Made by a program: the position numbers and the translations under genes. This document shows positions 1 through 19,232 of a stretch of 22,358 nucleotides of DNA, one piece after another. The notes beneath the pieces are model-generated. The model saw nothing but the letters and a program-made list of their open reading frames with translations. It did no database searches and had not been told where the DNA came from. The stretch is from a virus (Duplodnaviria > Heunggongvirae > Uroviricota > Caudoviricetes). The stretch lies in IMG/VR virus record IMGVR_UViG_2541047718_000017; one strand, 5' to 3'. Positions within the stretch are counted from its first letter, which is position 1, and each line of letters opens with the position of its first letter.

Positions 1-219
1 TCAAAGAGAGAGCGCCACCTGTCCTGATTTCATTGGATGCGGCTGAACCGGATTTGACTCTTTTGGCGTTGCAATCGAACGAACAAAAGTTTCATGGGTA
101 ACAAAAGTATGGCTGCAGTTAATGTTCTGGCACTGGTTGTAACGCTCTTTGGTCAATGAAGATACCTGAAAACTGCTGCGAGTATGGGCGGCACTTCCAC
201 ACAGTGGGCAAATCATCAT
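1..219 (-). CDS. ogr: Ogr/Delta-family zinc-finger late transcription activator
   Basis: Translation MICPLCGSAAH...CQNINCSHTF has the C-X2-C...C-X4-C pattern and length of P2 Ogr; sits downstream of D as in P2; GGGAGAG Shine-Dalgarno 8 nt before the ATG at 219; stop at 1-3. Start chosen internal to the 83-aa track ORF. Confidence 0.85.
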   Translation of the reverse strand: MMICPLCGSAAHTRSSFQVSSLTKERYNQCQNINCSHTFVTHETFVRSIATPKESNPVQPHPMKSGQVALSL

Positions 220-309
220 TTTTCGAGCTCTCCCCATTTTTGCTAAATTCACAATAATGATACCGCATTATTCCATTTTGCAAACTTAAAAGTTCTCCAT
301 TGCGAAGAA

Positions 310-1410
310 TCATTCCATTTCGAAATCATCAATCCTCACTTCAAGCTCCAGACTGGTTGTAAAACCGTTATCCGGGCTGACGGTATGTGTCAGAGTCGTA
401 ATGGTCCATTCCGCATCATCTATCGGCTGTTTAAAACCACTGACCTTCACAGGCATTTCCGTGTAGAGATCTGCCCGCCCTTCTGCCAGTTGTAGCGAAA
501 ATGACGCAACGCCGCGTTGCAGGCGTTCCCACTGCATTTTCGCCGCTCGTTCGGCGTTGCTCCGGTTGGCATAAGTGCGATTAAGTACCAGCACGTTTTC
601 ATCCGTACCCACCAGGTAATCGCCCTGCTTCGCTTCTGGCTCTTTCTTCTGCTTCTTAGTTCTGCGCTTACGCTTCACCGTGGTGCTTTCTTTCTTCGCA
701 GGTTCGCGGGTATGCAACCAGCTGGCAATTACGCCCGTGTAGGCTCCGCGATCTGCCAGGGTAAATCGGTGACTGTCGCCGTCCTTGCGTGTGATAGTGA
801 TCACTGGCAGAGGTTTACCAGTGGCGCTTTTGCCCTGCCCCTGCCGGATGAATAACAGATTGCCATTTTTCACCGACGCGATGGCACCGTACTGTCGCGC
901 CAGCCGCATCAGAAAACTGCCGTCACTCTCATTAGTCTGGTCTATATGCTCCACGGGCTTATCCGACAGGTCTTTACCCAGTGCCATCTTCAGCTTGTGC
1001 CGCGCGGCTATTTCCTTCACCACTTCCCCGACGGTGGTCTTATGCCACGATTTTTCACGGCGGGTATTCAGCGTTTCCCGAAAATCAGCACTTCGCGCCC
1101 GGATAGTCAGGCGGTCCGGTGCGCCAGTGTGTTCAATCTCGTCCACTGTGAATGCCCCTTTCGGGAAAAGCGGCTGCCCCTTCCAGCCCAGCGCCAGCGT
1201 AATAACCGCACCACGGCGCGGCAGCACGATTTTTCCGTCAGCGTCATCCAGCTCCAGATCAAGCTGGTCCGCTTCAAAGCCCCGGTTATCCGTCAGCGTC
1301 AAACTCATCAGGCGGTTATCCAGCACAGTGGTGATATCCCTGCCCTCAATACTGATGCTGAATGCGGGAGTTTTGTTGCCTTTGTTAAGCAGTTCAGAGC
1401 TGAAATTCAC
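310..1410 (-). CDS. D: tail protein D (late control gene D product)
   Basis: 366-aa ORF; position after U and before ogr; translation resembles P2 gpD (lysine-rich central linker KRKRRTKKQKKEPE). Exact start uncertain. Confidence 0.88.
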   Translation of the reverse strand: MNFSSELLNKGNKTPAFSISIEGRDITTVLDNRLMSLTLTDNRGFEADQLDLELDDADGKIVLPRRGAVITLALGWKGQPLFPKGAFTVDEIEHTGAPDRLTIRARSADFRETLNTRREKSWHKTTVGEVVKEIAARHKLKMALGKDLSDKPVEHIDQTNESDGSFLMRLARQYGAIASVKNGNLLFIRQGQGKSATGKPLPVITITRKDGDSHRFTLADRGAYTGVIASWLHTREPAKKESTTVKRKRRTKKQKKEPEAKQGDYLVGTDENVLVLNRTYANRSNAERAAKMQWERLQRGVASFSLQLAEGRADLYTEMPVKVSGFKQPIDDAEWTITTLTHTVSPDNGFTTSLELEVRIDDFEME

Positions 1411-1892
1411 GACAGCAGCCCTCCCACCGTTTTACTGATATCGCTTAAGGCAGACGTTGCCGTGTCCTGCAGATTATTCAGTTGCGCACTGAGATCACCG
1501 AACATATCGGACAGGGATTCATCCACTCGTTTGAGCGACAGGGTGAACTCAATCCGGCGCGGCATACCGTCGCGGAAAAACTCCGTTTTAGTCTGATTCA
1601 GTCCCTCAATCACATACATGCCGTAAATCGTGCCGCTGCCTTCAATCAGGGGCCATGCTTTCCCCTGTTCTGCCATCTGCTCCAGTGCCAGCAACGACAG
1701 CCTGCCGCCTGTTATTTCCGGCATAAGAACACCGGAAAGCGTCAGCATGTCGTTTTCCGGTCCCAGAAACTGCGTGGACGGACGTCGGTTTACCCGACTG
1801 TTTGCCGCATGTCGCCAGCTGCGTTGATACTGCAGTTCCTGATACGGAACGGTGCGCAGCATAAACACGTACAATCCCAGCACCATCATCAT
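1407..1892 (-). CDS. U: tail protein U
   Basis: 161-aa ORF directly downstream of T with overlapping stop/start; N-terminus resembles P2 gpU. Confidence 0.88.
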   Translation of the reverse strand: MMMVLGLYVFMLRTVPYQELQYQRSWRHAANSRVNRRPSTQFLGPENDMLTLSGVLMPEITGGRLSLLALEQMAEQGKAWPLIEGSGTIYGMYVIEGLNQTKTEFFRDGMPRRIEFTLSLKRVDESLSDMFGDLSAQLNNLQDTATSALSDISKTVGGLLS

Positions 1893-4800
1893 GCGTCGTA
1901 TCCCCCCTGATCGCTGTAGTTACTCCTGGCTTTTGCCTTCAGCCTGCGTTCACGTTCATCAAGCTGGCGTGCCACCTCCCGCGCAATATCCTGCGCACTT
2001 TGTCCTGGCTGCGTCTGAATGATGATCTGCGTCGGTGCCTCAATCCGTTGAACGAGCGGCACAGTGGCTGCGCGACTCACAATTGCTTCTCCACCTTTCG
2101 CGGGAAGTGCCAAAGGGTGCAACGGTGGAAGCTCTGCTGGCGCGGCAGCAACGCCCATCATTCCGGCAACAACGGCAGCCAGTGCAGCTGTATTTCTCCG
2201 GCTGGTCACATTTGCCGGGCCGTTAACAATTTCCGGCCCGTTTTCACCGACGATGCCAAACTGCCCTCGCGGGATATACCCGCCGCTGTCATACATCCCC
2301 GCAAAGCCATATCCCCATGATGGAAAACCACCCGATGGCATCATCACTTTACCGTCTGCATTCACCGTCGCAGGTTGCTGACGCGTCACGCTTTCCGGCA
2401 GTTTTGCCTTTGCGGCCTCTTTACTGACAATGCCGAGCTTCTCCAGCAACCAGGAAACGCCGGATTTCAGGGAGTCCAGCGGATGCATGACCATATTCAG
2501 CCCTTCCGCCAGTGCCTCCCCGAATCGCCGCCCCATTGCCGCTGCACTCTGCAGTTCGGCAGAGGTCGACTTAACGGGCGTCAGCAGATCAGTAAACCAG
2601 CCCCACAGCGCCTGTACTTTGTCGCCAATCCACTGAAACACAGGCTTAAGTGGTTCGAATGCAGCACTGATGGGACCTGCCGCCGCTTTGAATCCTTCCA
2701 CCACGCCACCGAGAAATGCGGTGATGGGTTGCCAGTATTTCCAGACAACCAGCGCCACGCCCGCCAGTGCAGTAACCACAAGACCTATCGGACTGAGCAG
2801 AGCACCTAACAGACCAGATATGGCATACAGGGCAACGCGCAGCATCGCCAGCGGACCAGATGCAAGCACACGAAGCACCGCGCCTGCGGCAGCCAGTCCA
2901 CCGCGCAGTACCGCCAGAGGATTCATAAACATCACAGCAACAGCACGTAAACCGGATAATCCAGACCGCAAAAGTGCAACCGGCGCACCTGCTACAGTTT
3001 TAAGGACATTTCCCGTCAGTGATGCCGTGCGGCGCAAAGACGACAACGGCGCAGTAAGTAAACCTGCGGCGTTGCCCGATGAAGCAAGCCCGCGTCGCAG
3101 CAGTGCCAGTGGTGCGCCAGCCAGCCAGGACAACGCGCTGCTGGTTCGAGTTACTGCTGCCGTAACGGAAGATAACGTTTTGATACCCAGCACAGAGAAT
3201 CCCAGACGGATCACTGCCAGCGGCCCCAGCACTGCAGCCAGCGCCACCGCTAAGGTGCCGAGGCCGACGGTAACCGCAGCCACAACAGCCGATGCTTTCA
3301 TCAGTGTGCCTGTCAGTTCCGGGTTAGCTTCCACCCAGCGACGCAACGCCCCCGTGACGCTTTTCACCGTGTACAGAATATCCATCAGCGGCTGGCGCAG
3401 CGTTTCGCCCAGGCTGCTGAAGGTGTTCTGCGCTCCGGTTTTGACCAGCAACCACTGCGCAGAAAGTGAATCCTTGTTAATGTCGGATTCTTTCTGCATG
3501 GAGCCGAGCGCATCATTGCCCGCTGTCAGTTTTAACTGACGCTGCAGTTCCGGCAGGTTGTTTGCCAGTTTCGCCGCGTCATCGCCAAACTCTTTACCAA
3601 ACAACATAGTCATGGCAGACAGGCGCTTGTCCTGCGGCAGCGCGTTTACCTTCTCCAGCACGCGCTGGATGGTTCCCATCGCATCCTTCGTCATCTGCTT
3701 TTCAATCACTTCAGGATTGAGTTTCAGCAGATTCATCCCTTCAAAGAAACTTTTGCTTTGCATGGTGGCAATGGACAATTCACACACCATCGCGTTTGCT
3801 GCACTGGCTGCAACCTCTGGCGCAGCGCCCAGTGTCAGGAAGGTGGAACCCAGCGCCGCCGCTTTACGATAATCCAGACGGTCAGCCACACCGCCCAGAC
3901 GTTGCATCACATCAATGATGTCTGCCCCTTTCGACATGGCGTTATCATCCAGATAGTTCAGCGCATCACCGAGCTGTTCAATATTGCGGGTGGGGATTTT
4001 GTAGAGCTGGGCGATTTTCCCCAGACTTTCTGACAGTTCATCCGCTGGCAGCTCAAAGGCTGTTGCCGCCTTTGCTGCCGTACTGGCGAAGGCCAGCAGG
4101 TCACGTTTCTGATCTTCCCAACTGTCGTCAGGGTTTGCGACGTTCATGCGCGCGCCACCTTCAACCAGTGCAGCGAAATCCACAGCACCGTTTTCCATCG
4201 GCAACTGTTCGCTGGCAGCCTTGATGGCATCCTGCATTTCATAAAAACGTGCAGTGCGGTTGCCATTATCGTCACGCAGACCATTGACCTGCTTTGCCAC
4301 ACCTTTCATGGCATCTTCCATGCTGGTATAGCTTTTTACTGCCGCCATCACTGGTGCGCCCATTGCCAGCCCTGCAGCCGTGGTGGTGGCTCCGGCACCT
4401 GCAATACGATCACGCACCTCCAGCGAACGGGCATAACTGGCACGCGCTGCATTCATCCTGCGCTGAGCTTCCCCCAGTCGCTTCAGCCGCGCCTCCTGTT
4501 TCGAAAGTTCCTGGTTATAACGTGATGTTTCACGGGCTAAACGGGCAGTTGCTCCCGCATCGTCTTTCGCAGAAATTCCCGCCCGGTACAGTTCAGCACG
4601 CACAAGCGCCGTCTGCTGCTGCAGCTTTTTCTGGCGTTCTTCCAGGCGCTGAACAGCCAGCCGTTGACGGCCCAGAGCAACAACCTGACGTTGCGAAGGC
4701 GGCCCCATCGCTCCCAGTTCCTGACTGAGCAAATTTGCACGCTGGCGGGCATAGTTCAGCCTGTCGCCTAATTTCTGATTTTCTGCCTGCAGCTTTCGGA

Positions 4801-4966
4801 AGCTGTCCAGACTGCTCCCGGCCTGATCAAGCTGCTTTATTGCATCGCGGGATTTTTTGACAGCAGCAGCCAGTTCTCTTGAACTGGCCTGCGCAGATCG
4901 AAATGGGCGGGTGAGCTTGTCAACCGCATTAAGAATGACCTGCAGACGCAGGTTGTTATCACTCAT
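1889..4966 (-). CDS. T: tail tape measure protein
   Basis: 1025-aa ORF; coiled-coil-rich N-terminal third, Gly/Ala/Leu-rich repeated hydrophobic segments in the middle, position between E/E' and U; typical of P2 gpT. Confidence 0.92.
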   Translation of the reverse strand: MSDNNLRLQVILNAVDKLTRPFRSAQASSRELAAAVKKSRDAIKQLDQAGSSLDSFRKLQAENQKLGDRLNYARQRANLLSQELGAMGPPSQRQVVALGRQRLAVQRLEERQKKLQQQTALVRAELYRAGISAKDDAGATARLARETSRYNQELSKQEARLKRLGEAQRRMNAARASYARSLEVRDRIAGAGATTTAAGLAMGAPVMAAVKSYTSMEDAMKGVAKQVNGLRDDNGNRTARFYEMQDAIKAASEQLPMENGAVDFAALVEGGARMNVANPDDSWEDQKRDLLAFASTAAKAATAFELPADELSESLGKIAQLYKIPTRNIEQLGDALNYLDDNAMSKGADIIDVMQRLGGVADRLDYRKAAALGSTFLTLGAAPEVAASAANAMVCELSIATMQSKSFFEGMNLLKLNPEVIEKQMTKDAMGTIQRVLEKVNALPQDKRLSAMTMLFGKEFGDDAAKLANNLPELQRQLKLTAGNDALGSMQKESDINKDSLSAQWLLVKTGAQNTFSSLGETLRQPLMDILYTVKSVTGALRRWVEANPELTGTLMKASAVVAAVTVGLGTLAVALAAVLGPLAVIRLGFSVLGIKTLSSVTAAVTRTSSALSWLAGAPLALLRRGLASSGNAAGLLTAPLSSLRRTASLTGNVLKTVAGAPVALLRSGLSGLRAVAVMFMNPLAVLRGGLAAAGAVLRVLASGPLAMLRVALYAISGLLGALLSPIGLVVTALAGVALVVWKYWQPITAFLGGVVEGFKAAAGPISAAFEPLKPVFQWIGDKVQALWGWFTDLLTPVKSTSAELQSAAAMGRRFGEALAEGLNMVMHPLDSLKSGVSWLLEKLGIVSKEAAKAKLPESVTRQQPATVNADGKVMMPSGGFPSWGYGFAGMYDSGGYIPRGQFGIVGENGPEIVNGPANVTSRRNTAALAAVVAGMMGVAAAPAELPPLHPLALPAKGGEAIVSRAATVPLVQRIEAPTQIIIQTQPGQSAQDIAREVARQLDERERRLKAKARSNYSDQGGYDA

Positions 4967-5395
4967 CGTTGGCCCCGCTTCTCTGAATCGCTTTATACCG
5001 CCATTCCAGCACTTCGGTCAGCGGCATAACGTCAGTAACGGATGGCGGCCAGTGAAAAATGGTGGCGATATCTGCCACCAGATCGTCAACCGTCAGGCTG
5101 TCGGTAAACCGGCAAGCACCGACTTCTTCAACAAAAAAGTGACAACCTCAACCGACATGGCAGTGAGATCTGCCGGGTCCATCTCTGCAATTTCCTGTGC
5201 AGTCAGTGCCGGACTGGAGATGCGGGGGAGCACGGTCATCATCGCGTTTACATCCATATCCATAATGGCCTGCAGGCGTGTACCGCGCAGCGCACCGGAC
5301 TGCGGTTTACGCAGCACAATTTCGGTGATTTCTGTTTTACCGCGCTTGATGGGGGTATCCAGTTGAATGGTCTTTTCAGTCTGCTTATCGCTCAT
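4959..5395 (-). CDS. E': tail assembly chaperone E+E' (programmed -1 frameshift product, about 145 aa)
   Basis: T_TTT_TTG heptamer on the minus strand at 5138..5132 in the E frame (ACT TTT TTG); the -1 frame stays open for 57 codons to a TGA at 4961..4959, overlapping the T start (4966). Manually translated. Confidence 0.72.
5093..5395 (-). CDS. E: tail assembly chaperone E (zero-frame product)
   Basis: 100-aa ORF between FII and T; the slippery heptamer lies near its 3' end. Confidence 0.88.
   Translation of the reverse strand: MSDKQTEKTIQLDTPIKRGKTEITEIVLRKPQSGALRGTRLQAIMDMDVNAMMTVLPRISSPALTAQEIAEMDPADLTAMSVEVVTFLLKKSVLAGLPTA
5132..5138 (-). other. -1 ribosomal frameshift slippery heptamer TTTTTTG (E to E')
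   Basis: Plus strand reads caaaaaa; X_XXY_YYZ register matches the E reading frame. Confidence 0.7.
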
Positions 5396-5420
5396 TTTGC
5401 TGTCCTGTCAATTGGGTTCT

Positions 5421-5438
5421 GGCGCGGTATCCCGCGCC
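5421..5438 (-). other. GC-rich stem-loop between FII and E (7-bp stem GGCGCGG/CCGCGCC, 4-nt loop)
   Basis: Perfect inverted repeat in the 54-bp FII-E intergenic region; no U-tract follows on the mRNA strand. Confidence 0.35.
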
Positions 5439-5449
5439 GTTCAGATATA

Positions 5450-5965
5450 TCAGAGGCCGAGGGCGTTGCGGTGCGCTTCCATCAGGTCCACACCGTCCAC
5501 AATTTCCACCATGTTGATAAGGTCCACTTCATAGAGCACCTCACCATTGATGGTCAGCTTCGCGTAGCTGTTGGTACTGGTCACTTTGGTGGTGTTGCTT
5601 TCGCCCGTCTTCCACTCGCCGGAATCCACTTCTTTGTGACGTCCACGCACGACAAGCTCCACGGCCTGCACTTCCCCGGTATCGTCACGCTGAATAGAGC
5701 CGGTAAAGCGCAGCTGGATGCCATCCACCGTGGCTTTACCCATCTGTTTAAACAGCAGCAATTCAGTACCACCAATGGAAAATTCTGTATCCAGCGCACT
5801 GTCATCAAGCCCCAGATCCACATCCACCGCACCCGGCATTCCGCCGCCGCGATACTTCTCATATTTGCGGGTAAATTTCGGCAGCGTCAGCGACTCAACG
5901 ATCCCCTGCCAGTTGTTCCCGTCGTTAAACAGGTTCAGGTGTTTTAATTTGCGTGGTAAAGCCAT
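5450..5965 (-). CDS. FII: tail tube protein
   Basis: 171-aa ORF; position and translation consistent with P2 gpFII. Confidence 0.9.
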   Translation of the reverse strand: MALPRKLKHLNLFNDGNNWQGIVESLTLPKFTRKYEKYRGGGMPGAVDVDLGLDDSALDTEFSIGGTELLLFKQMGKATVDGIQLRFTGSIQRDDTGEVQAVELVVRGRHKEVDSGEWKTGESNTTKVTSTNSYAKLTINGEVLYEVDLINMVEIVDGVDLMEAHRNALGL

Positions 5966-5974
5966 GTTGTCCCC

Positions 5975-6195
5975 TTACGCGCTGACCTGGCTGGCGAAAT
6001 TAACCAGGTACTGATCGGTGATGCGCTGACGCAGCATCAGGTTTTCAAGTGGCGGCACTGGCGTGTAGTCGTAGTCGATGGTGAGTTTTCCGGCTTTCAG
6101 CGTGTCTTTGTCGTTCACCGACTCATCCAGCCAGCAATCACCACCAATGAGATAGCCCTGACTGACCAGGCTGCGCATTTTGGCGCGGATACCTT
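5975..6195 (-). pseudogene. FI: tail sheath protein FI, detached C-terminal fragment (about 71 codons)
   Basis: ...[71 protein letters not shown] matches the P2 FI C-terminus; no FI-like sequence upstream of the junction at about 6194; the track ORF extends to 6337 only because no stop intervenes. Confidence 0.85.
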
Positions 6196-6207
6196 GGTTT
6201 GGGAGAA
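6182..6207 (+). other. hybrid invertase crossover site (junction A): FI-derived half GGCGCGGATACC, core TT, tail-fibre half GGTTTGGGAGAA
   Basis: 12-2-12 architecture; right half is the exact inverted repeat of 8045-8056; left half is sheath coding sequence. Confidence 0.7.
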
Positions 6208-6696
6208 GGCTCTGCATTACCGGTTGGGGTGCCTGTTCCGTGGCCTTCAGCCACTCCGCCAACAGGCTGGCTGAAATGCAACGGTGCCGCTTTTTCTGCT
6301 GAAGAATACCCGGAACTGGCAAAGGCTTATCCGACAAATAAATTGCCTGATTTACGTGGTGAGTTTATTCGTGGCTGGGATGACGGGCGTGGTATTGATG
6401 CTGTACGTGCCTTGCTAAGTCTTCAGAATGGAGGAGTGGAATCACACACCCACCAAGGGCAGCTCTTCAGAGTTAGTGATTATCGTACAAAAGAAATACC
6501 AGCATCAGAAGTTATGGGAAGAGGATATATTGCAAGCCTGACGCCGGGTGCTGATAGCCCACTTGATTTTGATGATTATTCTGTATCTTCTAATCCAAAT
6601 GGATATTTTGTCGGGAATCAGAGAACAACAGCATATGGGATAAATGAAACCCGTCCACGGAATATTGCATTTAACTATATCGTGAGGGCTGCCTGA
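6196..6696 (+). CDS. tail fibre variable C-terminal exon (Hv), currently not joined to the H constant region
   Basis: Begins GGT TTG GGA GAA (GLGE) immediately after the crossover core; translation ...[42 protein letters not shown]...NYIVRAA is a typical enterobacterial side-tail-fibre C-terminal receptor-binding domain; upstream in-frame stop at about 6163. Confidence 0.8.
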
Positions 6697-7298
6697 TGAA
6701 TAAAGCCGTATTAAATAACGAACTCATTGCCATAAAAGCGGGAGACATTACCATTTATAATTATGATGGTGAAACGCGGGAATATATTTCCACATCAACT
6801 GAATATCTTGCGGTTGGCGTCGGTATCCCGGCATGTTCTTGTTTAGATGCACCAGTTACACATAAAGCTGGTTATGCAATCTGCCGTTCTGCAGATTTTA
6901 ACTCATGGGAATATGTGCCAGACCATCGCGGTGAAATCATCTATAGCACCGAAACAGGAGAATCGAAAGAAATCACAGCTCCGGGTGATTACCCTGAAAA
7001 TACAACCACTATCGCCCCGTTAACGCCATATGATAAATGGGATGGTGAGAAATGGGTGACGGATACTGAGGCACAGCATAGTGCCGCAGTAGACGCGGCA
7101 GAAGCACAGCGCCAGTCACTGATTGATGCAGCAATGGCTTCCATTAGTCTGATTCAGCTGAAATTACAGGCCGGACGGAAGTTGACGCAGGCAGAAACAA
7201 CCCGACTTAACGCCGTGCTGGATTACATTGACGCGGTGGCGGCAACAGATACCAGCACCGCGCCGGATGTCATCTGGCCTGAACTGCCGGAGGCGTAG
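6696..7298 (+). CDS. tail fibre assembly chaperone (Tfa / Mu U-like) for Hv
   Basis: 200-aa ORF coupled to the Hv stop; C-terminal ...DYIDAVAATDTSTAPDVIWPELPEA motif typical of Tfa proteins. Confidence 0.85.
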   Translation: MNKAVLNNELIAIKAGDITIYNYDGETREYISTSTEYLAVGVGIPACSCLDAPVTHKAGYAICRSADFNSWEYVPDHRGEIIYSTETGESKEITAPGDYPENTTTIAPLTPYDKWDGEKWVTDTEAQHSAAVDAAEAQRQSLIDAAMASISLIQLKLQAGRKLTQAETTRLNAVLDYIDAVAATDTSTAPDVIWPELPEA

Positions 7299-7707
7299 GC
7301 CATTCAATATCTGGCGCACCGGTAGTATCGACTAGCTCCAGTGCGTCCAGATAATCCAGCCACGAATTATATTGCGCCAGTTCCTCGCTTTTCAGACGAC
7401 CAATAGCGGCTTTACCGGGCCATTGTTTACTGTTCATGTATTCGTTGGCCTGATTAAGCAATAATTGCCTTTCTGATTCTGCCTGTTGAATAAGTTCTTC
7501 ATGTGATGGTGGAGGTATTAGTGCCCATGTGGGTAATCCATTTTTTCCTGCAACACGAATTTTGTCATCTGGAGGCGTATTGATTGCAAATTCATTATAA
7601 ACATCATCACTGACAGCCAGAGCATCATCTGGCCATGAATTTGCATTAATGTAATCATCCTTAAGTGCAGGATTCACAAAAATGTTTAAAGATGGACTAT
7701 AAAACAT
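7270..7707 (-). CDS. alternative tail fibre assembly chaperone (Tfa', Mu U'-like)
   Basis: 145-aa ORF convergent with and overlapping tfa by 29 bp; C-terminal ...DYLDALELVDTTGAPDIEWPTPPA motif. Confidence 0.85.
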   Translation of the reverse strand: MFYSPSLNIFVNPALKDDYINANSWPDDALAVSDDVYNEFAINTPPDDKIRVAGKNGLPTWALIPPPSHEELIQQAESERQLLLNQANEYMNSKQWPGKAAIGRLKSEELAQYNSWLDYLDALELVDTTGAPDIEWPTPPAVQAR

Positions 7708-7708
7708 A

Positions 7709-8056
7709 TTACACCCCTATAGCGATATAACGACCTAATACAGCGTTTACAGCAGTCGCTATGCTTGAAAAACCGCGGAACTGATTTGATGTAATTGCAG
7801 AAGCCGACAGGATTCCTGCGCCTGAAGGTGTATGCCCCACATGACTAACTATCATTCCATAACATGCTGACGGAAAGGCAAAAGGAAAATCGTTAAGATA
7901 TCCGGCATCTTCACCACCAGACCCACCAAATCTCGCCTGCCCCCACTGAATAATCAGTGTTCTCCGGGAACCTGAAATAATTAACGGGATCGTTACATAC
8001 CCATTCAGGCCAATGACACCCGATGCAGTGCCAGCCAGAGATAATTCTCCCAAACC
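7709..8056 (-). CDS. alternative tail fibre variable C-terminal exon (Hv')
   Basis: Coding starts at the crossover core with the same GGT TTG GGA GAA (GLGE) as Hv; followed by tfa'. Codons upstream of 8056 in the track ORF (MMPVSCYLCIFLNV) lie in the outer half-site and are probably not coding. Confidence 0.78.
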   Translation of the reverse strand, partial: GLGELSLAGTASGVIGLNGYVTIPLIISGSRRTLIIQWGQARFGGSGGEDAGYLNDFPFAFPSACYGMIVSHVGHTPSGAGILSASAITSNQFRGFSSIATAVNAVLGRYIAIGV

Positions 8057-8070
8057 AACGTTTAAGAAAA
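8045..8070 (+). other. invertase crossover site (gix/hix/pix-like): TTCTCCCAAACC AA CGTTTAAGAAAA
   Basis: 12-2-12 near-dyad resembling the remembered hix/gix consensus (TTCTnnAAAACC-NN-GGTTT...); inner half is a perfect inverted repeat of 6196-6207; lies 56 bp upstream of the invertase start. Confidence 0.75.
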
Positions 8071-8125
8071 TGCAGAGGTAACAGCTAACTGGCATCATCT
8101 CCGGTTTTTATTCAGGGGGATGATC

Positions 8126-8692
8126 ATGCTTATTGGCTATGTACGCGTGTCAACAAATGACCAGAACACCGATTTGCAACGTAATGCACTGAACTGCGCG
8201 GGATGTGAGCAGATTTTTGAGGACAAAATCAGTGGCACTAAGTCCGACAGACCGGGGCTGAAAAAACTACTCAGGACACTATCGGCAGGAGACACGCTGG
8301 TTGTCTGGAAGCTGGACAGGTTGGGGCGCAGTATGCGGCATCTTGTTACGCTGATAGAAGAGTTGCGCCAGCGTGGTGTGAATTTCAGAAGCCTGACTGA
8401 CAGTATTGATACCAGTACCCCAATGGGCCGTTTCTTTTTTCATGTCATGGGTGCCCTGGCTGAAATGGAACGCGAACTGATAGTTGAACGTACCAGGGCA
8501 GGGCTGGCTGCAGCTCGTGCCAAAGGCAGAGTAGGTGGACGCCGTCCTAAGTTGACCACCGAACAGTGGGCACAGATTGGGCGTTTACTCGAGGCCGGAG
8601 AATCAAGACAGCGTATTGCACTGATTTTTGATGTAGGCGTTTCTACCATTTATAGAAAATTTCCGGCAAATAAGATCAATGAATCCCCCTGA
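8126..8692 (+). CDS. serine-recombinase DNA invertase (Gin/Pin/Cin/Hin family)
   Basis: MLIGYVRVSTNDQNTDLQRNAL...VVWKLDRLGRSMRHL...MGRFFFHVMGALAEMERELIVERT... matches Gin/Pin-type invertases from memory, including the catalytic Ser in YVRVST and a C-terminal HTH. Start taken at the internal ATG (track start 8120). Confidence 0.92.
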   Translation: MLIGYVRVSTNDQNTDLQRNALNCAGCEQIFEDKISGTKSDRPGLKKLLRTLSAGDTLVVWKLDRLGRSMRHLVTLIEELRQRGVNFRSLTDSIDTSTPMGRFFFHVMGALAEMERELIVERTRAGLAAARAKGRVGGRRPKLTTEQWAQIGRLLEAGESRQRIALIFDVGVSTIYRKFPANKINESP

Positions 8693-8740
8693 ATCAGCAT
8701 TATGTTGATTATCCCTGCAAGCAGACAAATACCGTTATTT

Positions 8741-8758
8741 TGTGTGAATAACGACACA
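8741..8758 (+). promoter_or_regulatory. Ogr-box (TGT-N12-ACA) of late promoter P_F upstream of FI
   Basis: TGTgtgaataacgacACA with 5-bp dyad arms, in the 143-bp gap between invertase and FI start, about 85 bp upstream of the FI ATG (8835). Confidence 0.6.
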
Positions 8759-8834
8759 ACTGCGCTTAGCTGTTTGTCAGGCACAATCACTTCAACATAG
8801 GGCGAAGCCTAATCCAATCAGGAGGTTCGCCACT

Positions 8835-9797
8835 ATGGCTCAGGATTACCACCACGGGGTGCGCGTTGTTGAAGTCAACGAAGGTACCCGATCTATTACC
8901 ACGGTGAGCACCGCCATCGTGGGTATGGTCTGCACGGGCGATGATGCCGATGCAAAAATGTTTCCTCTTAATAAACCCGTGCTGATCACTGATGTGCTGA
9001 CTGCCAGCGGTAAAGCGGGTGAGTCAGGTACTCTGGCCCGTTCGCTGGATGCCATCGCTGACCAGGCAAAACCCGTGACCATTGTTGTGCGTGTGCCGCA
9101 GGGTGAAACGGAAGACGAAACCACGACCAATATCATCGGCGCAGTGACTGCTGAAGGTAAAAAAACAGGTATGAAAGCCCTGTTATCTGCCCAGTCACAG
9201 CTCGGCGTTAAACCGCGCATTCTCGGCGTGCCAGGCCACGACACCAAGGCGGTAGCTACTGAGTTGCTGAGCGTGGCGCAAAGCCTGCGTGGATTTGCTT
9301 ACCTGTCAGCGTATGGCTGCAAGACAGTGCAGGAGGCGATCACTTACCGCGAAAACTTCAGCCAGCGCGAAGGGATGCTGATCTGGCCTGACTTTACTGG
9401 CTGGGACACGGTGCTGAATGCCGAAGCAACGGCATATGCCACCGCCCGTGCGCTTGGTCTGCGCGCCAAAATTGACGAGCAGACCGGATGGCACAAAAGC
9501 CTGTCCAACGTGGGCGTGAACGGTGTCACCGGAATTTCTGCAGATGTGTTCTGGGATCTGCAGGACCCGGCAACCGATGCAGGTCTGCTGAACCAGAACG
9601 ACGTCACCACGCTTGTGCGTAAAGACGGTTTCCGCTTCTGGGGTTCCCGCTGCCTGAGTGATGACCCGCTCTTTGCCTTCGAAAACTACACCCGCACGGC
9701 GCAGGTGCTGATGGACACGATGGCAGAAGCACACATGTGGGCGGTGGATAAACCGCTTAACCCGTCGCTGGCCCGCGACATTATCGAAGGTATGTGA
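8835..9797 (+). pseudogene. FI: tail sheath protein FI, N-terminal 319 codons, truncated at the inversion junction
   Basis: MAQDYHHGVRVVEVNEGTRSITTVSTAIVGMVCTGDDADAKMFPLNKPVLITDV... is near-collinear with the P2 FI N-terminus; reading frame ends ...RDIIEG-M-stop two codons after the crossover core. Confidence 0.88.
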
Positions 9798-9800
9798 GAA
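9775..9800 (+). other. hybrid invertase crossover site (junction B): FI-derived half GCGACATTATCG, core AA, H-derived half GGTATGTGAGAA
   Basis: H-side half (TTCTCACATACC on the minus strand) matches the Hv/Hv' half-site TTCTCCCAAACC at 10 of 12 positions; the other half is sheath coding sequence. Confidence 0.7.
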
Positions 9801-10836
9801 GACCAGCTACATCCTTTCCACTCAAATTGGTAAGCGTATTGTCCAGCGGTTGTTTACCTGCCAGCGCATTAAGCATTGTCGTGGCAAAGTTCGGATCATT
9901 CCCCAGTGCCGCCGCCAGTTCGTTCAGTGTATCCAGTGCAGCAGGTGCAGAACCCACCATTCCTGCAATCGCCGATTTCACAAAAGCCGTAGTGGCAATC
10001 TGTGTATTGTTGACCGACTGCGCCGCCGTGGGGGCTGTTGGCGTTCCGGTGAGTGCCGGACTCGACAACGGTGCTTTTAGTGCCAGCGCATTGTTAATGG
10101 TGGTACTGAAATTCGGATCATTGTTAATGGCTGCGGCTATTTCTTTCAGCGTGTCCAGCGTGGCTGGCGCACCATTAATAAGGGCCGTCAGTGCCGCCTG
10201 TACAAACGCAGTGGTCGCAACCTGCGTGGTATTATTCCCCGCCGCTGGCGTTGGCGCTTTGGGGGTTCCGGTAAATGTCGGGCTGGCTTTTGGCGCGTAC
10301 TGTGAATGCGGGTCCGGTGCGGCAAGATGTTTTGCCATCTGATCATCCGCGTACACCTTCAGCTCCAGTGCCTTGTCATCCACATACTTGCGGGTTGCCA
10401 GCACTACAGCAGGGTCGATTTTCAGGGTGATATTGTCCGTGCTGCTGGTAATCAGCACCATGCGCACGGTCTGAGTGCGCCCGCTACCTTCAGCCAGTTG
10501 CGGCTTATAGCTTTCCGGGCAGTTGCCCACGGCAATCAATGCACCTGACTCATCAAACAGGCCCACTTCACGTATCCACCAACCGCCCTCGTTTTCAGGG
10601 ATCACCTGTTCGGCAATAATCTGGCTGCTGTTCTGCGGGTCGATATAAAGCATATTCAGCGCAGCCCGGCGTTTCTCATTTACCAGTGCCGTCTGCTTTG
10701 CGTCCGGCGTTGGCAATACTCCACCGCCATCGCCCACCGCCATATGGGTAATTTTTAGCGGCACACCGAGCGCGGCGGCGCTGGCAAGTTTCGCCGCGCC
10801 AATATCCGTCAGCAGGGTATAAAATTTTGTGCTCAT
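9781..10836 (-). CDS. H: tail fibre protein H, N-terminal constant region (Mu Sc-equivalent), ending 2 codons after the crossover core
   Basis: MSTKFYTLLTDIGAAKLA...MAVGDGGG...ESYKPQLAEGSGRTQT... and the repeated ...TQIATTAFV... motifs match the P2 gpH N-terminal part; the ORF ends ...LTYL-R-stop at the junction with antisense FI. Confidence 0.88.
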   Translation of the reverse strand: MSTKFYTLLTDIGAAKLASAAALGVPLKITHMAVGDGGGVLPTPDAKQTALVNEKRRAALNMLYIDPQNSSQIIAEQVIPENEGGWWIREVGLFDESGALIAVGNCPESYKPQLAEGSGRTQTVRMVLITSSTDNITLKIDPAVVLATRKYVDDKALELKVYADDQMAKHLAAPDPHSQYAPKASPTFTGTPKAPTPAAGNNTTQVATTAFVQAALTALINGAPATLDTLKEIAAAINNDPNFSTTINNALALKAPLSSPALTGTPTAPTAAQSVNNTQIATTAFVKSAIAGMVGSAPAALDTLNELAAALGNDPNFATTMLNALAGKQPLDNTLTNLSGKDVAGLLTYLR

Positions 10837-13260: not shown

Positions 13261-13306
13261 AGGGAAAGGTTGCCATCAGGGGAAGAAAGGCGGCAGTGCT
13301 GCAACT

Positions 13307-13324
13307 TGTATCAGTGCTGATACA
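13307..13324 (+). promoter_or_regulatory. Ogr-box (TGT-N12-ACA) of late promoter P_V
   Basis: TTGTATCAGtgCTGATACAA, a 20-bp dyad with 9-bp arms, in the 68-bp gap between S stop and V start. Confidence 0.6.
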
Positions 13325-13775: not shown

Positions 13776-14220
13776 GTTTCACCGTCCACATTTCTTCAGG
13801 TTCATCAGGTTCCGCTATAGCTTCAACGCTCGACACACTGCCGTCAGTGCTGACCAGCACACGCTCCGTCAGTTGCAGGTTGAGGCTGATATCACAGACA
13901 TCGTTGCGCAGAATATCCACCTCAAAGGTGAATAGCTTTTCCCGTAACGCCGGGTTATTGATGGCATCGGGCTGGTTATCACGCAGCCACAGCAAAACCG
14001 GGGCCATCAGCAGATTCTGGTCGCCGCTGAAATCCTCAATCACCACGTTCAGGGTGTAGCGGTACTCCCATGACATGGAGCTGGCCCCCGTGGCAACCAG
14101 CGAACCGTTATCCACAAACAGATGCAGTTTGTCCGGGTTATTGCGGACATAAGGCACCGCTTTATTGAGGGCGTGGCGCAGGGATTGTGGTTTGTTCACT
14201 GTTTCGCTCCTGACACGCAA
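13768..14220 (-). CDS. R: tail completion protein R
   Basis: 150-aa ORF; ...FVDNGS...RYTLNVVIEDFSGD...WLRDNQPD... matches P2 gpR; exact start uncertain. Confidence 0.85.
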   Translation of the reverse strand: MRVRSETVNKPQSLRHALNKAVPYVRNNPDKLHLFVDNGSLVATGASSMSWEYRYTLNVVIEDFSGDQNLLMAPVLLWLRDNQPDAINNPALREKLFTFEVDILRNDVCDISLNLQLTERVLVSTDGSVSSVEAIAEPDEPEEMWTVKRG

Positions 14221-14452
14221 TAATCATGTCCACTTTGTCTGCACAGACCGCCCAGGCGGCCTCCGTTTCATCCAGCAACGCATTCAGATCACCGTTAGTG
14301 CGCGGTGCTGCCTGCTCCAGCCGACACGGCGTCACTCGCGGACAACCACTGACGGTAAGCTGCACCTCCGGTGAGTGCCGGACGTTCCCGCAGCCGGATA
14401 ATGTCAGCAGGCAAAGGAGTATCAGCCCAGTGGCGTAAATCCTCGTTCTCAC
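14162..14452 (-). CDS. lysC: outer-membrane spanin lipoprotein (Rz1-like)
   Basis: 96-aa ORF in an alternative frame overlapping the lysB 3' end and the R 5' end; N-terminal lipobox LLTLSGC. Confidence 0.72.
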   Translation of the reverse strand: MRTRIYATGLILLCLLTLSGCGNVRHSPEVQLTVSGCPRVTPCRLEQAAPRTNGDLNALLDETEAAWAVCADKVDMIIACQERNSEQTTIPAPRPQ

Positions 14453-14723
14453 GTTTCAGTTCCTCGATCCGGCGTTGTCGTTGTCTCAGCTGTGCGCTGG
14501 TCTGTTCTGCTTCGGCATAGAGCCGCGCCTGCTCCCGGTTATTGGTTTCAGTCAGAATGGACAGGCTGATAAGCTGGCTGTTGCTCTTTGCCAGTGCCTG
14601 GCTTTTGCTCTGCAGCTCGTTTGCCTGCGTGCTGATGGTCTGGCTGGCATCAGCCAGCCGCCACGTCTGCCAGCCCAGCGCCGCTAGTAATAACGCCAGC
14701 ACAACCAGCAGCAACCGGTTCAT
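14295..14723 (-). CDS. lysB: inner-membrane spanin (Rz-like)
   Basis: 142-aa ORF; N-terminal TM segment then a coiled-coil-prone region; ATGA coupling with lysA. Confidence 0.8.
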   Translation of the reverse strand: MNRLLLVVLALLLAALGWQTWRLADASQTISTQANELQSKSQALAKSNSQLISLSILTETNNREQARLYAEAEQTSAQLRQRQRRIEELKRENEDLRHWADTPLPADIIRLRERPALTGGAAYRQWLSASDAVSAGAGSTAH

Positions 14724-15097
14724 GCTGCTACCTGTTGCGCCATCTGATTACGGGTGATCCAGAAGGCAATAACGGTCAGTAGATAAAAGACCAGGGTAAT
14801 AGCCCACCCCGTCCATGCGAGACTTACAACAATCAGCAATCGCATCACCCAACTGATAAATACGTTTTCTTTTCGGGTAATTGTCTTCAGCAAAGATGCC
14901 CTTAACTCCTGCCAGAGCGGGCCATTCTGAATTAACGCAGCCAGTGCTACCGGAATTACCGCCCATGTCAGCAAACAGGCTACCCAAACGCCGGACGCTG
15001 CCAGTACCGGAAAGATCCCCTGCGGATACACCATTGCTGCGATTAACAGCGCCATCCATAACATCAGAAACAGTCCGCTGATTAATTTCTTTTTCAT
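14720..15097 (-). CDS. lysA: lysis-timing membrane protein LysA
   Basis: Multi-TM hydrophobic ORF between K and lysB; start taken at internal MKKKLISGLF (the track ORF starts at a GTG at 15169 inside K). My manual indexing here disagrees with the track by 1 nt. Confidence 0.7.
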   Translation of the reverse strand: MKKKLISGLFLMLWMALLIAAMVYPQGIFPVLAASGVWVACLLTWAVIPVALAALIQNGPLWQELRASLLKTITRKENVFISWVMRLLIVVSLAWTGWAITLVFYLLTVIAFWITRNQMAQQVAA

Positions 15098-15098
15098 T

Positions 15099-15611
15099 TC
15101 AGTTTGCTCCCTGTAAACACCAGGCCATCTCCCGCGCACGGCGGTTATCCAGCCCCTGATTAAACACACCTTTTACATAAACCCAGCGCGGCAACTGTCG
15201 GCACGCATCCGCCCAGCGCCGCTGATTGAGCAATTTCACCAGCGTGGAGCTGCAGGCATTGCCTGTCCCCACGTTGAAGGCAAACGACACCACCGAGTCA
15301 TACACCTTTTGTGGCGGCTGTTGCTTCACACATCTTTCCAGCGCCCGCTCCACACGCAGCACGTTGGAGATAAGCCCTTCTGCTGCCTGTCGTTCCGTAA
15401 TGGTTTTGCCGGGAATGACGCCCGACGTATTACCAATGCCGTCAGTCCATACACCCGCGCTGCACTGATAGGGCTGCAGACGACAGCCTTCGTAATCGGC
15501 AATCAGTTTCAGTCCCTCCACGGAGGTGTGAAGCTGCTGAAAACCCGGCAGCGTGGCAGCAATAGCCAGCACGGTCCCGACAAGGCAGCGTTTAACGATT
15601 GATGGATTCAT
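15099..15611 (-). CDS. K: endolysin (lysozyme), probable SAR-type
   Basis: 170-aa ORF at the P2 K position; Gly/Ala-rich weakly hydrophobic N-terminus (CLVGTVLAIAATLPG), then a lysozyme-like E...D...T motif region (EGLKLIADYEG...WTDGIGNT). Confidence 0.85.
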   Translation of the reverse strand: MNPSIVKRCLVGTVLAIAATLPGFQQLHTSVEGLKLIADYEGCRLQPYQCSAGVWTDGIGNTSGVIPGKTITERQAAEGLISNVLRVERALERCVKQQPPQKVYDSVVSFAFNVGTGNACSSTLVKLLNQRRWADACRQLPRWVYVKGVFNQGLDNRRAREMAWCLQGAN

Positions 15612-15807
15612 AGTCCTCCCGCGAGATCTGCCCGTCGCGCAGAAGCTGGTAGGCTTTGTGTTTGTAGTACCAGTTGATAGCCAGCATCAGCACACCAATC
15701 ATCAGGCCGCCCAGCGTTGAGGCATCCTTGATGGACAAATCGCCCAGCCAGACCAGCACAACGGCGATGCAGTACGTGATAAAGGCGCTGATTCGCTCAA
15801 GCGTCAT
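15592..15807 (-). CDS. Y: holin (small, two predicted TM segments; pinholin-like)
   Basis: 71-aa ORF between X and K with two hydrophobic stretches and a charged C-terminus; position corresponds to P2 Y. Confidence 0.65.
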   Translation of the reverse strand: MTLERISAFITYCIAVVLVWLGDLSIKDASTLGGLMIGVLMLAINWYYKHKAYQLLRDGQISREDYESINR

Positions 15808-17227: not shown

Positions 17228-18286
17228 TTACGCTCCGGTTTCTGCTGCGGCGGCGCTAAAATCGCCAATCTGGATGTTTTCCACCAGTGCAGCGCAGCGG
17301 TAGTCCTCAACCACATAGGCTTCGTTAACGGATTCAAAGTTTTCAATCCGGTCACGTTTCGGGTTGTCGATAACTGAACGGCGGCGGGTGTCTTCCTGCC
17401 AGTAAATGGACAGGTTATCCAGACGGGTGATCAGCAGTGCATTCGGCGGGAAGAACGGCGCACGCACGGCCTGCAGGCCACCCATGCGTTTCTGACTGAT
17501 GATCATATCGGCAGCCAGTTTTTCACTGTTTTCCTGCTCTTTGTTGACCAGCGGGAAATACTTGTCAGACAGCAGTTCACGACCGCAAATCACCACCAGA
17601 TCGTCATCGTCCTGGTAGACCACGTCGATAAGCTCATTGACGGCATCCATCACCACAGCGTCCAGGTTGGCATATTCGCCACCTTTACCGACTTTCACCG
17701 CGCCCGGTGTGGTTTCACCGCCCGTGGTGGTGCTGCCCATAACGTGATCCGGTGCATCCTCACGGATTTTCTGCAGCCAGCCTTTGTTCACATCCTGCAG
17801 CAGCGGGTTTTCACTACGGTTGGAGGTTTTCGCACGCTTCACGCCGTTAAAGCCGATCATGATGCGGTCCAGTGCCTGACGTTTCACGATGGCGTCACGG
17901 ATACGCACCTGGAAATCCTGAAACTTCGCCCACAGGTCCAGCTTCGCGTAGGTCAGTACCGTGTCAAAGTTGGTCTGCTCGCATTTATATTCCACATCGA
18001 CCATCAGCGTCGGATCGACAGGTTCACGCTCTTTCGCGGTGGTATCAGTGGTTCCGGCAATGGTGCTGCCAACTCCCAACCCCAGCAGCTGACCGGACTG
18101 CTCAGTCACTGGCGTGACGTTAATCAGCGTCAGGAAAGCGGCGGACTGCTGGATCTGGTCTTCCAATGTCTGCTGCACGGACGGCTCTACGGTGAACTTG
18201 CTGGACAGTTCTTCAACTGCCACACCGTTCAGACGCGCCAGTTGCTGCAGATAAGCGTTAAAAGCAAAGCGGGTATTCTTCTTCAT
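17228..18286 (-). CDS. N: major capsid protein
   Basis: 352-aa ORF; MKKNTRFAFNAYLQQLARLNGV...FTVEPSVQQTL... collinear with P2 gpN. Confidence 0.93.
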   Translation of the reverse strand: MKKNTRFAFNAYLQQLARLNGVAVEELSSKFTVEPSVQQTLEDQIQQSAAFLTLINVTPVTEQSGQLLGLGVGSTIAGTTDTTAKEREPVDPTLMVDVEYKCEQTNFDTVLTYAKLDLWAKFQDFQVRIRDAIVKRQALDRIMIGFNGVKRAKTSNRSENPLLQDVNKGWLQKIREDAPDHVMGSTTTGGETTPGAVKVGKGGEYANLDAVVMDAVNELIDVVYQDDDDLVVICGRELLSDKYFPLVNKEQENSEKLAADMIISQKRMGGLQAVRAPFFPPNALLITRLDNLSIYWQEDTRRRSVIDNPKRDRIENFESVNEAYVVEDYRCAALVENIQIGDFSAAAAETGA

Positions 18287-19136: not shown

Positions 19137-19214
19137 GAGCCGTGCTCCGTTAGAAAAAACTTACTGGAGCCTTATGGTTGCGGTGATGGGGGCAGTGAAA
19201 CAATGCGCGGTATT

Positions 19215-19232
19215 TGTACCGACAACCACACA
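19215..19232 (+). promoter_or_regulatory. Ogr-box (TGT-N12-ACA) in the divergent O / P-Q promoter region
   Basis: tTTGTaccgacaaccacACAAa with 5-bp dyad arms, in the 142-bp gap between the O and P start codons; which promoter it serves is unresolved. Confidence 0.5.

Follow-up and report, generated by a model that had tools for sequence, protein, structure and literature searches.

How does a late promoter come to face away from the operon that it serves, and what is left to transcribe that operon? The question is raised by IMG/VR virus record IMGVR_UViG_2541047718_000017, a 22,358-nucleotide stretch of DNA (referred to below as the window), which is a P2-family (Wadgaonvirus-like) prophage remnant sited in a LysR-family gene. 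In the window a predicted P2-type late promoter, P_F, is followed by only the N-terminal part of the tail-sheath gene FI and points antisense into the tail-fibre gene H and the genes beyond it. Our reading, which we consider very probable as a whole, is that an orthologue of P_F in its native intergenic region has been re-aimed by an inversion, in which a serine invertase recombined a crossover site in H with a quasi-site in FI.

Comparison with the parental arrangement

The window is identical throughout to the reverse complement of Escherichia coli AF57 (NZ_OZ546943.1). E. coli AR_0013 (NZ_CP032204.1) has the same arrangement and differs from AF57 by a single base in 22 kb. E. coli CE10 carries the same prophage in the parental gene order, and its FI (1173 nt) and H (1551 nt) are both intact. 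In a BLAST comparison, positions 6189–9793 of the window correspond to CE10 9712–6108 in inverted orientation, with 100% identity over 3605 bp and both flanks colinear. P_F lies inside this block, in line with the first-pass annotation, which had the promoter travelling with an inverted segment.

The N-terminal sheath fragment FI' (8835–9797, plus strand) consists of 319 native residues, a prefix shared with CE10 FI, followed by a foreign methionine and a stop codon; the intact gene encodes 390 residues. It matches the Pfam domain Phage_sheath_1 and only positions 1–47 of the sheath_1C profile, and the Prokaryotic Genome Annotation Pipeline (PGAP) annotates it as a pseudogene in both AF57 and AR_0013. 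The last ∼72 codons of FI are found at 5975–6193 on the minus strand, without a start codon or a promoter. This remnant is identical to the end of CE10 FI and covers sheath_1C positions 47–104. Since the profile is divided at position 47 and its pieces lie on opposite strands, a single gene has been cut. The tail-fibre gene is likewise truncated: H' (9781–10836, minus strand) retains 350 native residues followed by an arginine and a stop codon, compared with 516 residues in CE10.

The junctions are hybrid crossover sites

Both junctions fall on the central dinucleotide of 26 bp crossover sites. In CE10 the parental H site reads TTCTCCCAAACC AA GGTATGTGAGAA, while the quasi-site in FI, which spans codons 315–323, reads GGCGCGGATACC TT CGATAATGTCGC. 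The core TT of the quasi-site is the same dinucleotide as that of the H site (TT/AA on the two strands) and the two sites are in inverted orientation, as required. The window contains the reciprocal hybrids of these parental sites, each made up of an FI quasi-site half, the core and an H-site half: J1, GGCGCGGATACC TT GGTTTGGGAGAA, at 6182–6207 (core 6194–6195) and J2, GCGACATTATCG AA GGTATGTGAGAA, at 9775–9800 (core 9787–9788). The alignments to CE10 overlap by just 7 bp at both ends (ATACCTT/AAGGTAT), which include the site core, and the resolution is limited to those 7 bp. At the H site, the core AA is all that the regular CE10/N32 flip has in common with the aberrant one.

A serine DNA invertase of 190 amino acids is encoded inside the inverted block (8120–8692, plus strand; Pfam Resolvase, 2.3e-53, and HTH_7, 1.5e-15), and the same protein accession, WP_000905010.1, is found in CE10, N32, AR_0013 and AF57. 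As the gene lies within the block, any Fis-bound enhancer contained in it would be in cis. The adjoining tail-fibre cassette (6196–8098) comprises Hv (6199–6696, plus strand), G (6696–7298, plus strand), G' (7270–7707, minus strand) and Hv' (7709–8098, minus strand), with Pfam matches to Collar, Caudo_TAP (twice) and Gp53-like_C, and is colinear with that of phage 500465-1. The regular right-hand crossover site, TTCTCCCAAACC AA CGTTTAAGAAAA (8045–8070), forms an inverted repeat with 6191–6207 and marks the edge of the normal CE10/N32 flip. The system has been active in this lineage: the cassette of the shared prophage faces one regular way in CE10 and the other in N32.

The junction anatomy thus points to an off-target inversion by the serine invertase between the H site and a look-alike quasi-site in FI. 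The invertase would normally flip the tail-fibre cassette between two 26 bp sites. Here it would instead have recombined the H site with the quasi-site at FI codons 315–323, in inverted orientation and with a shared central dinucleotide, such that about 3.6 kb (6196–9786) carrying the cassette, the invertase gene, P_F and FI codons 1–319 became inverted.

By its anatomy the rearrangement behaves as a quasi-site inversion of the Hin/Gin/Cin/Pin kind. Quasi-sites of Cin are chosen by the central dinucleotide (Iida & Hiestand-Nauer, 1987, as cited in PMC4134206), and the cixQ inversions of P1 Cin likewise pair a proper 26 bp site with a poor match in which the central dinucleotide is the same (Iida & Hiestand-Nauer, 1986/1987, as cited in PMC4134206). 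The event in the window differs in being natural, inherited and located in a chromosomal prophage, and in splitting a structural gene and relocating a late promoter. The cixQ work of Iida and Hiestand-Nauer was reportedly carried out on laboratory plasmid and phage substrates. Prophage Phi2 of strain EC958 switches its tail fibre through crossover sites of 26 bp that are nearly the same (PMC4134206): its site reads TCCTCAATTACC TT GGTTTAGGAGAA, compared with TTCTCACATACC TT GGTTTGGGAGAA in the lineage of the window, and the variable part has a Collar domain in both. In Phi2, however, only a regular 2–3 kb flip between two proper sites is seen.

The inversion is rare and occurred once

The junction is spanned in just two of the 1284 E. 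coli genomes with matching DNA. A degenerate-pattern scan for independent FI-to-H recombinant junctions found none in the GTDB species representatives; a single IMG/VR match to the pattern has no BLAST similarity to the window and was treated as a chance hit. None of 80 related FI loci in IMG/VR has a truncated FI. A limited literature search found no natural aberrant invertase inversions in prophages.

The junction between gene Q and an IS3 insertion sequence (IS) is shared at 100% identity by five complete E. coli genomes: AF57, AR_0013, CE10, IAI39 and N32. Only the sister prophages of AF57 and AR_0013 have the inversion, and these two also share an E allele that CE10, IAI39 and N32 lack. 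As the Q–IS3 junction is present in all five and the inversion together with the E allele in two, the segment inverted once, after the loss of the early genes.

The nearest complete phage to the window is Escherichia phage 500465-1 (Wadgaonvirus, Peduoviridae). This phage and related invertase-bearing P2-like phages have the identical intergenic region between the invertase gene and FI, and the order H-G/G'-Hv'-invertase-FI is colinear at ∼96.5% identity. They differ in that the block is oriented as its flanks are and in that FI is intact (390 residues in 79 of the 80 loci and 790 in the other).

The inverted block contains an orthologue of P_F

The interval 8692–8835 is the 143 bp gap between the stop codon of the invertase gene (8690–8692) and the ATG of FI (8835). 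An Ogr box had been placed at 8741–8758, before the FI fragment, and TGTGTGAATAACGACACA is read there exactly as claimed. This is the predicted Ogr/B-type activator site of P_F, a TGT-N12-ACA dyad centred at 8749.5, which together with its flanks has perfect 6 bp arms (TTGTGT/ACACAA). The −10-like element AACATA follows 35 nt after the box (8794–8799, plus strand). Transfer of the P2 start (17626–17628) through the spacing from box to −10 element to start predicts transcription to begin at 8805–8808 on the plus strand, which would put the centre of the site near −56 and leave a leader of ∼28 nt. A Shine–Dalgarno sequence, AGGAGG (8820–8825, plus strand), is kept in close relatives. The FI ATG falls 94 nt after the start of the box and is followed in the window by FI codons 1–319 alone.

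The bare motif is of little use here. TGT-N12-ACA has six matches in the window, where shuffles give an expectation of 6.44, and three of the matches, at 3919, 5914 and 19273, include two or three that are clearly inside coding sequence. As the motif is not enriched, its count is by itself no evidence. Its position was therefore compared among the 80 IMG/VR loci with relatives of the FI fragment, which provide 66 distinct upstream sequences, several of them mutually unalignable. In all 80 an exact TGT-N12-ACA begins 87–94 nt before the FI ATG, with differing upstream neighbours. A re-count gave the box in 79 of 79 parsed loci, compared with 3.1e-4 boxes per position elsewhere in those loci. 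The 12 interior nucleotides and the flanks vary freely among the relatives (for example GTGAATAACGAC, GCCATTTTTCAT and ATCAGCGACTAT), while TGT and ACA are constant. In 60 of the 63 distinct upstream sequences compared for it, A[AC]CAT[AG] follows the box at a spacing of 35 nt.

The annotated P_F of P2 (NC_001895) has its activator-binding site at 17555–17583, its start at 17626–17628 and the FI ATG at 17652. We compared the two promoters through these coordinates and their spacings rather than by alignment. The centre of the box lies 85.5 nt from the FI ATG in the window and 83 nt in P2, and in P2 an AAAATA is found 36 nt after the box, 6–8 nt before the annotated start. The two promoters agree in standing upstream of FI, in a dyad site ∼83–86 nt before the ATG, in a −10-like element 35–36 nt after the box, in a poor −35 region and in a cognate gene for an Ogr-family zinc-finger activator downstream of D. 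They differ in the box, which is a perfect TGT-N12-ACA in the window and TGT-N12-CCA in P2, in the upstream neighbour (the invertase gene in the window, fun(Z) and a terminator in P2) and in that the promoter of the window is uncoupled from FII-D-ogr. P2 late promoters have TGT-N12-ACA in common and depend on Ogr (PMC3931495).

Given the conserved position of the box in all 80 loci and a −10-like element as in P2 P_F, the interval 8692–8835 is best described as the native invertase–FI intergenic region with the predicted P_F orthologue, an ordinary member, as far as its sequence goes, of the P2-family class of late promoters. Intact relatives have exactly the same promoter sequence; only its context has changed.

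Consequences for late transcription

The first-pass annotation further held that P_F is now aimed at antisense H-I-J, and the gene layout agrees: P_F is on the plus strand and H', I, J, W and V are on the minus strand. With the activator present, P_F would make a truncated-sheath mRNA and the transcript would then run antisense into H'-I-J-W-V, converging with that of the late promoter P_V. Rho would probably terminate this untranslated antisense RNA early. Beyond 9797, the plus strand between P_F and the antisense genes has only weak terminator-like hairpins. After the inversion P_F and P_V are convergent, ∼4.45 kb apart, across antisense H-I-J-W-V. We infer the re-aimed transcription, and the extent of the transcripts, from the geometry of the layout.

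The orphaned remainder of the F operon (1–5965, minus strand) consists of FII (5450–5965), E (5093–5395), E', T (1889–4966), U (1407–1892), D (310–1410) and ogr (1–219). FII-E/E'-T-U-D was claimed to lack a recognizable late promoter, and in terms of boxes this stands: the stretch from FII to the P_F box contains no exact TGT-N12-ACA, and a scan upstream of FII that allowed one mismatch gave no candidate with a −10 element at the right spacing apart from the P_F box itself. The 3' remnant of FI, FII, E/E', T, U and D, and read-through into ogr, would thus be deprived of their dedicated promoter. The F-operon transcript of P2 ends at a terminator after ogr; as it runs through ogr, late read-through into this gene is uncoupled from P_F in the window.

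The strongest terminator-like hairpin of the region is at 5060–5080 on the minus strand, where TGGTGGCAGATATCGCCACCA is followed by TTTTT just past the E stop codon, inside the E/E' frameshift extension. Relatives without the invertase gene have a strong GC hairpin and a T-run (for example CCCCGCAGGCGCGGGG-TTTTTTT) 20–45 nt upstream of the P_F box. No such hairpin is found upstream of the box in the invertase-bearing phages, including the window, and in this phage type upstream transcripts may read into the F operon.

The activator gene and the other late promoters

The activator gene is intact. Its 72-codon open reading frame (1–219, minus strand) matches Pfam Ogr_Delta (5e-22) and contains a CX2CX22CX4C motif. 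Its identity to P2 Ogr, 51%, is indicative only, and family membership rests on Pfam. Upstream of ogr (220–309, minus strand) a plausible sigma-70-like promoter, TTTGCA-16-TATCAT, can be recognized by eye.

The P_V activator site, TGTATCAGTGCTGATACA, lies at 13307–13324, with its centre 55.5 nt from the V ATG (13260, minus strand). The geometry of P2 pV is the same: the centre of its site is at 10252.5 and the annotated start is the first base of the V ATG, 10308. The P_O/P_P box (19215–19232) is located between the divergent O and P genes, and its layout resembles that of P2, in which a single activator site is annotated for divergent pO and pP. In the window the centres of the respective boxes are 55.5 nt from the ATGs of both V (13260) and P (19279). 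The V and P mRNAs of the window may be leaderless; P of P2 has a 23 nt leader. CAAC is found exactly 34 nt after the box in P_F, P_V and P_O (8759–8800, 13265–13306 and 19170–19214), and P_P lacks it. The P_F dyad is flanked near-symmetrically by CAACATA, at 34 nt on the plus strand (8793–8799) and at 33 nt on the minus strand.

The prophage remnant and its sisters

In the left arm ogr (1–219), D, U, T, E', E and FII (5450–5965) follow each other on the minus strand, the rearranged section occupies the middle of the window between the two arms, and the right arm carries H', I, J, W, V, S, R, the lysis genes, X, L, M, N and O, again on the minus strand. P and Q are on the plus strand and are followed by the IS3 element, with a truncated integrase next in the genome. 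The whole early region is missing through an IS3-linked deletion, and in all five sister prophages it is deleted and int is truncated. As a consequence, the prophage cannot be induced, and an activator would need to be provided. A scan of the whole window at the Rfam gathering thresholds found no family.

N32 is arranged as CE10 is except for the opposite regular orientation of the tail-fibre cassette. It keeps CI and part of CII beside IS3 (8–1152), while in the other sisters the deletion extends through to int. IAI39 (8092–8796 and 19621–20325) has lost the cassette and the invertase gene to IS26, and a second IS26 and a foreign fragment are found in its gene P. The sister remnants are thus decaying by differing routes. 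CE10 has an 81 bp tandem duplication (13797–13958; window 13878–13958) in the tail-completion gene R, which is 513 nt long as opposed to 432 nt; the duplication is absent from the window, AR_0013, IAI39 and N32. The holin, lysozyme and spanin genes (window 14295–15807) remain intact under late promoters although the CI repressor gene is deleted.

A perfect inverted repeat of 12 nt, ATTCAGGGGGAT/ATCCCCCTGAAT (8110–8121/8683–8694), encloses the open reading frame of the invertase, reaching from immediately ahead of the ATG as far as the stop codon. Among the relatives, ten loci have a perfect copy and about ten an imperfect one, with one compensated change versus several uncompensated ones. We rejected it as a feature and it is probably due to chance.

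Alternative explanations

Several points weigh against a re-aimed P_F and a quasi-site inversion. The −10 element of P_F matches the sigma-70 consensus poorly, and aligning the interval to the P_F region of P2 with MAFFT is uninformative, the intergenic sequences being too diverged. The activity of the promoter and its dependence on Ogr rest on homology. The FI quasi-site is weak, with about six and three matches to the ten-position half-site consensus in a manual count, and its DNA is unchanged in 49 of the 80 related FI genes, none of which is inverted. The catalyst is deduced from the anatomy of the junctions, and an invertase encoded elsewhere in the genome could also have been responsible. 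These 49 uninverted quasi-sites, together with the occurrence in two of 1284 genomes and the lack of any other instance in our searches, indicate that the event is rare.

The alternative that survives best complements our explanation rather than replacing it, and we give it an even chance. P_F would be intact yet irrelevant, the activator never being expressed, the promoter remaining silent and the rearrangement being neutral decay. This agrees with the deleted early region and truncated int of all five sisters and with the loss of the cassette in IAI39 to IS26 and the second IS26 in its gene P. The holin, lysozyme and spanin genes, which are under the same activator, are moreover intact, and the host survives. 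However, the ogr gene is undamaged, with a plausible sigma-70-like promoter ahead of it, and a P2-family phage or a P4-type satellite could provide the activator in trans. The activators of P2-family phages and P4-type satellites have the TGT-N12-ACA consensus in common.

It is unlikely, though worth setting out, that FII-E-T-U-D-ogr is still transcribed late, either by read-through from P_V across the inverted block or by leftward firing from the P_F dyad. A single activator site serves the divergent P_O and P_P of P2, as the box at 19215–19232 would in the window, and the leftward face of the P_F dyad now points at FII. On the minus side CAACATAATG is located 33 nt from the box, compared with CAACATAGG at 34 nt on the plus side, and P_O and P_V have CAAC at 34 nt. 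Together with a TTGTCT-18-CATAAT match on the minus strand near the box, CAACATAATG makes up a speculative leftward core promoter at 8699–8728. No strong minus-strand terminator is predicted from 8700 to 5966, which would suit either route. Against this, only near-identical relatives keep the leftward element, which more distant phages with an invertase lack, promoter-like matches in the region are at chance frequency (six found versus 7.9 expected), and unlike P_O/P_P a leftward promoter at the P_F box is a suggestion at the level of motifs. On either route, a largely untranslated stretch of RNA, ∼2.7 kb long if counted from the box and 3.8 kb if counted from H', would also be open to Rho. 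In intact phages the minus-side elements could act as a divergent promoter that reads antisense to the invertase gene; here such a promoter would be directed toward FII.

We consider it very doubtful that the inverted state is a usable switch set by the invertase, with P_F as an activator-triggered source of antisense RNA against H-I-J-W-V. If it were, a superinfecting P2-family phage or P4-type satellite would, through Ogr, B or delta, trigger interference with its own related baseplate and tail-fibre messages. J1 and J2 would then be at least as recombinogenic with each other as the original pair of sites, and the other face of the dyad might keep FII-D transcribed.

An assembly artefact, or homologous or IS-mediated recombination, is a similarly improbable source of the inverted order. 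Long-read assemblies are known to go wrong at invertible phage segments (PMC4134206), and IS3 and IS26 are active in this prophage lineage. Both junctions are nevertheless found at 100% identity in two separately deposited complete genomes, AF57 and AR_0013, and the 7 bp shared at the junctions are too short to confuse an assembler or to support recombination by RecA. Neither junction has an IS, a target duplication or a long repeat, while both breakpoints are the central dinucleotide of a 26 bp invertase site in the right orientation for inversion. We therefore rejected these origins.

Least probable of all is that the match at 8741–8758 arose by chance and that the interval serves only as a spacer or as the invertase gene's 3' untranslated region: the chance-level number of boxes in the window and the copies in coding sequence would allow it, but the fixed distance to the FI ATG in 80 of 80 loci despite free variation of the inner 12 nt and flanks, the agreement in geometry with the annotated P2 P_F and the location of the other intergenic boxes of the window at the P2 positions for P_V and P_O/P_P speak against it.

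Biological significance

A P2-type late promoter and a quasi-site inversion are both of known kinds and their combination will not surprise a specialist. The event is biologically ordinary and leaves the accepted picture of P2 late control and of serine invertases in place. It is a clean natural example of a quasi-site inversion, most probably by a phage tail-fibre invertase, with each junction resolved to within 7 bp and with sister strains that preserve the parental (CE10) and the regularly flipped (N32) states. For annotation, the inversion explains the four 'partial' sheath and tail pseudogenes that PGAP reports at this locus. For regulation, it amounts to a naturally built construct: P_F and P_V, two promoters predicted to depend on an activator, converge across 4.45 kb, and the F operon, like read-through into ogr, is uncoupled from P_F. 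More generally, it indicates that an invertase can remain active in a dead prophage and scramble it, here by splitting the sheath and fibre genes and re-aiming a late promoter.

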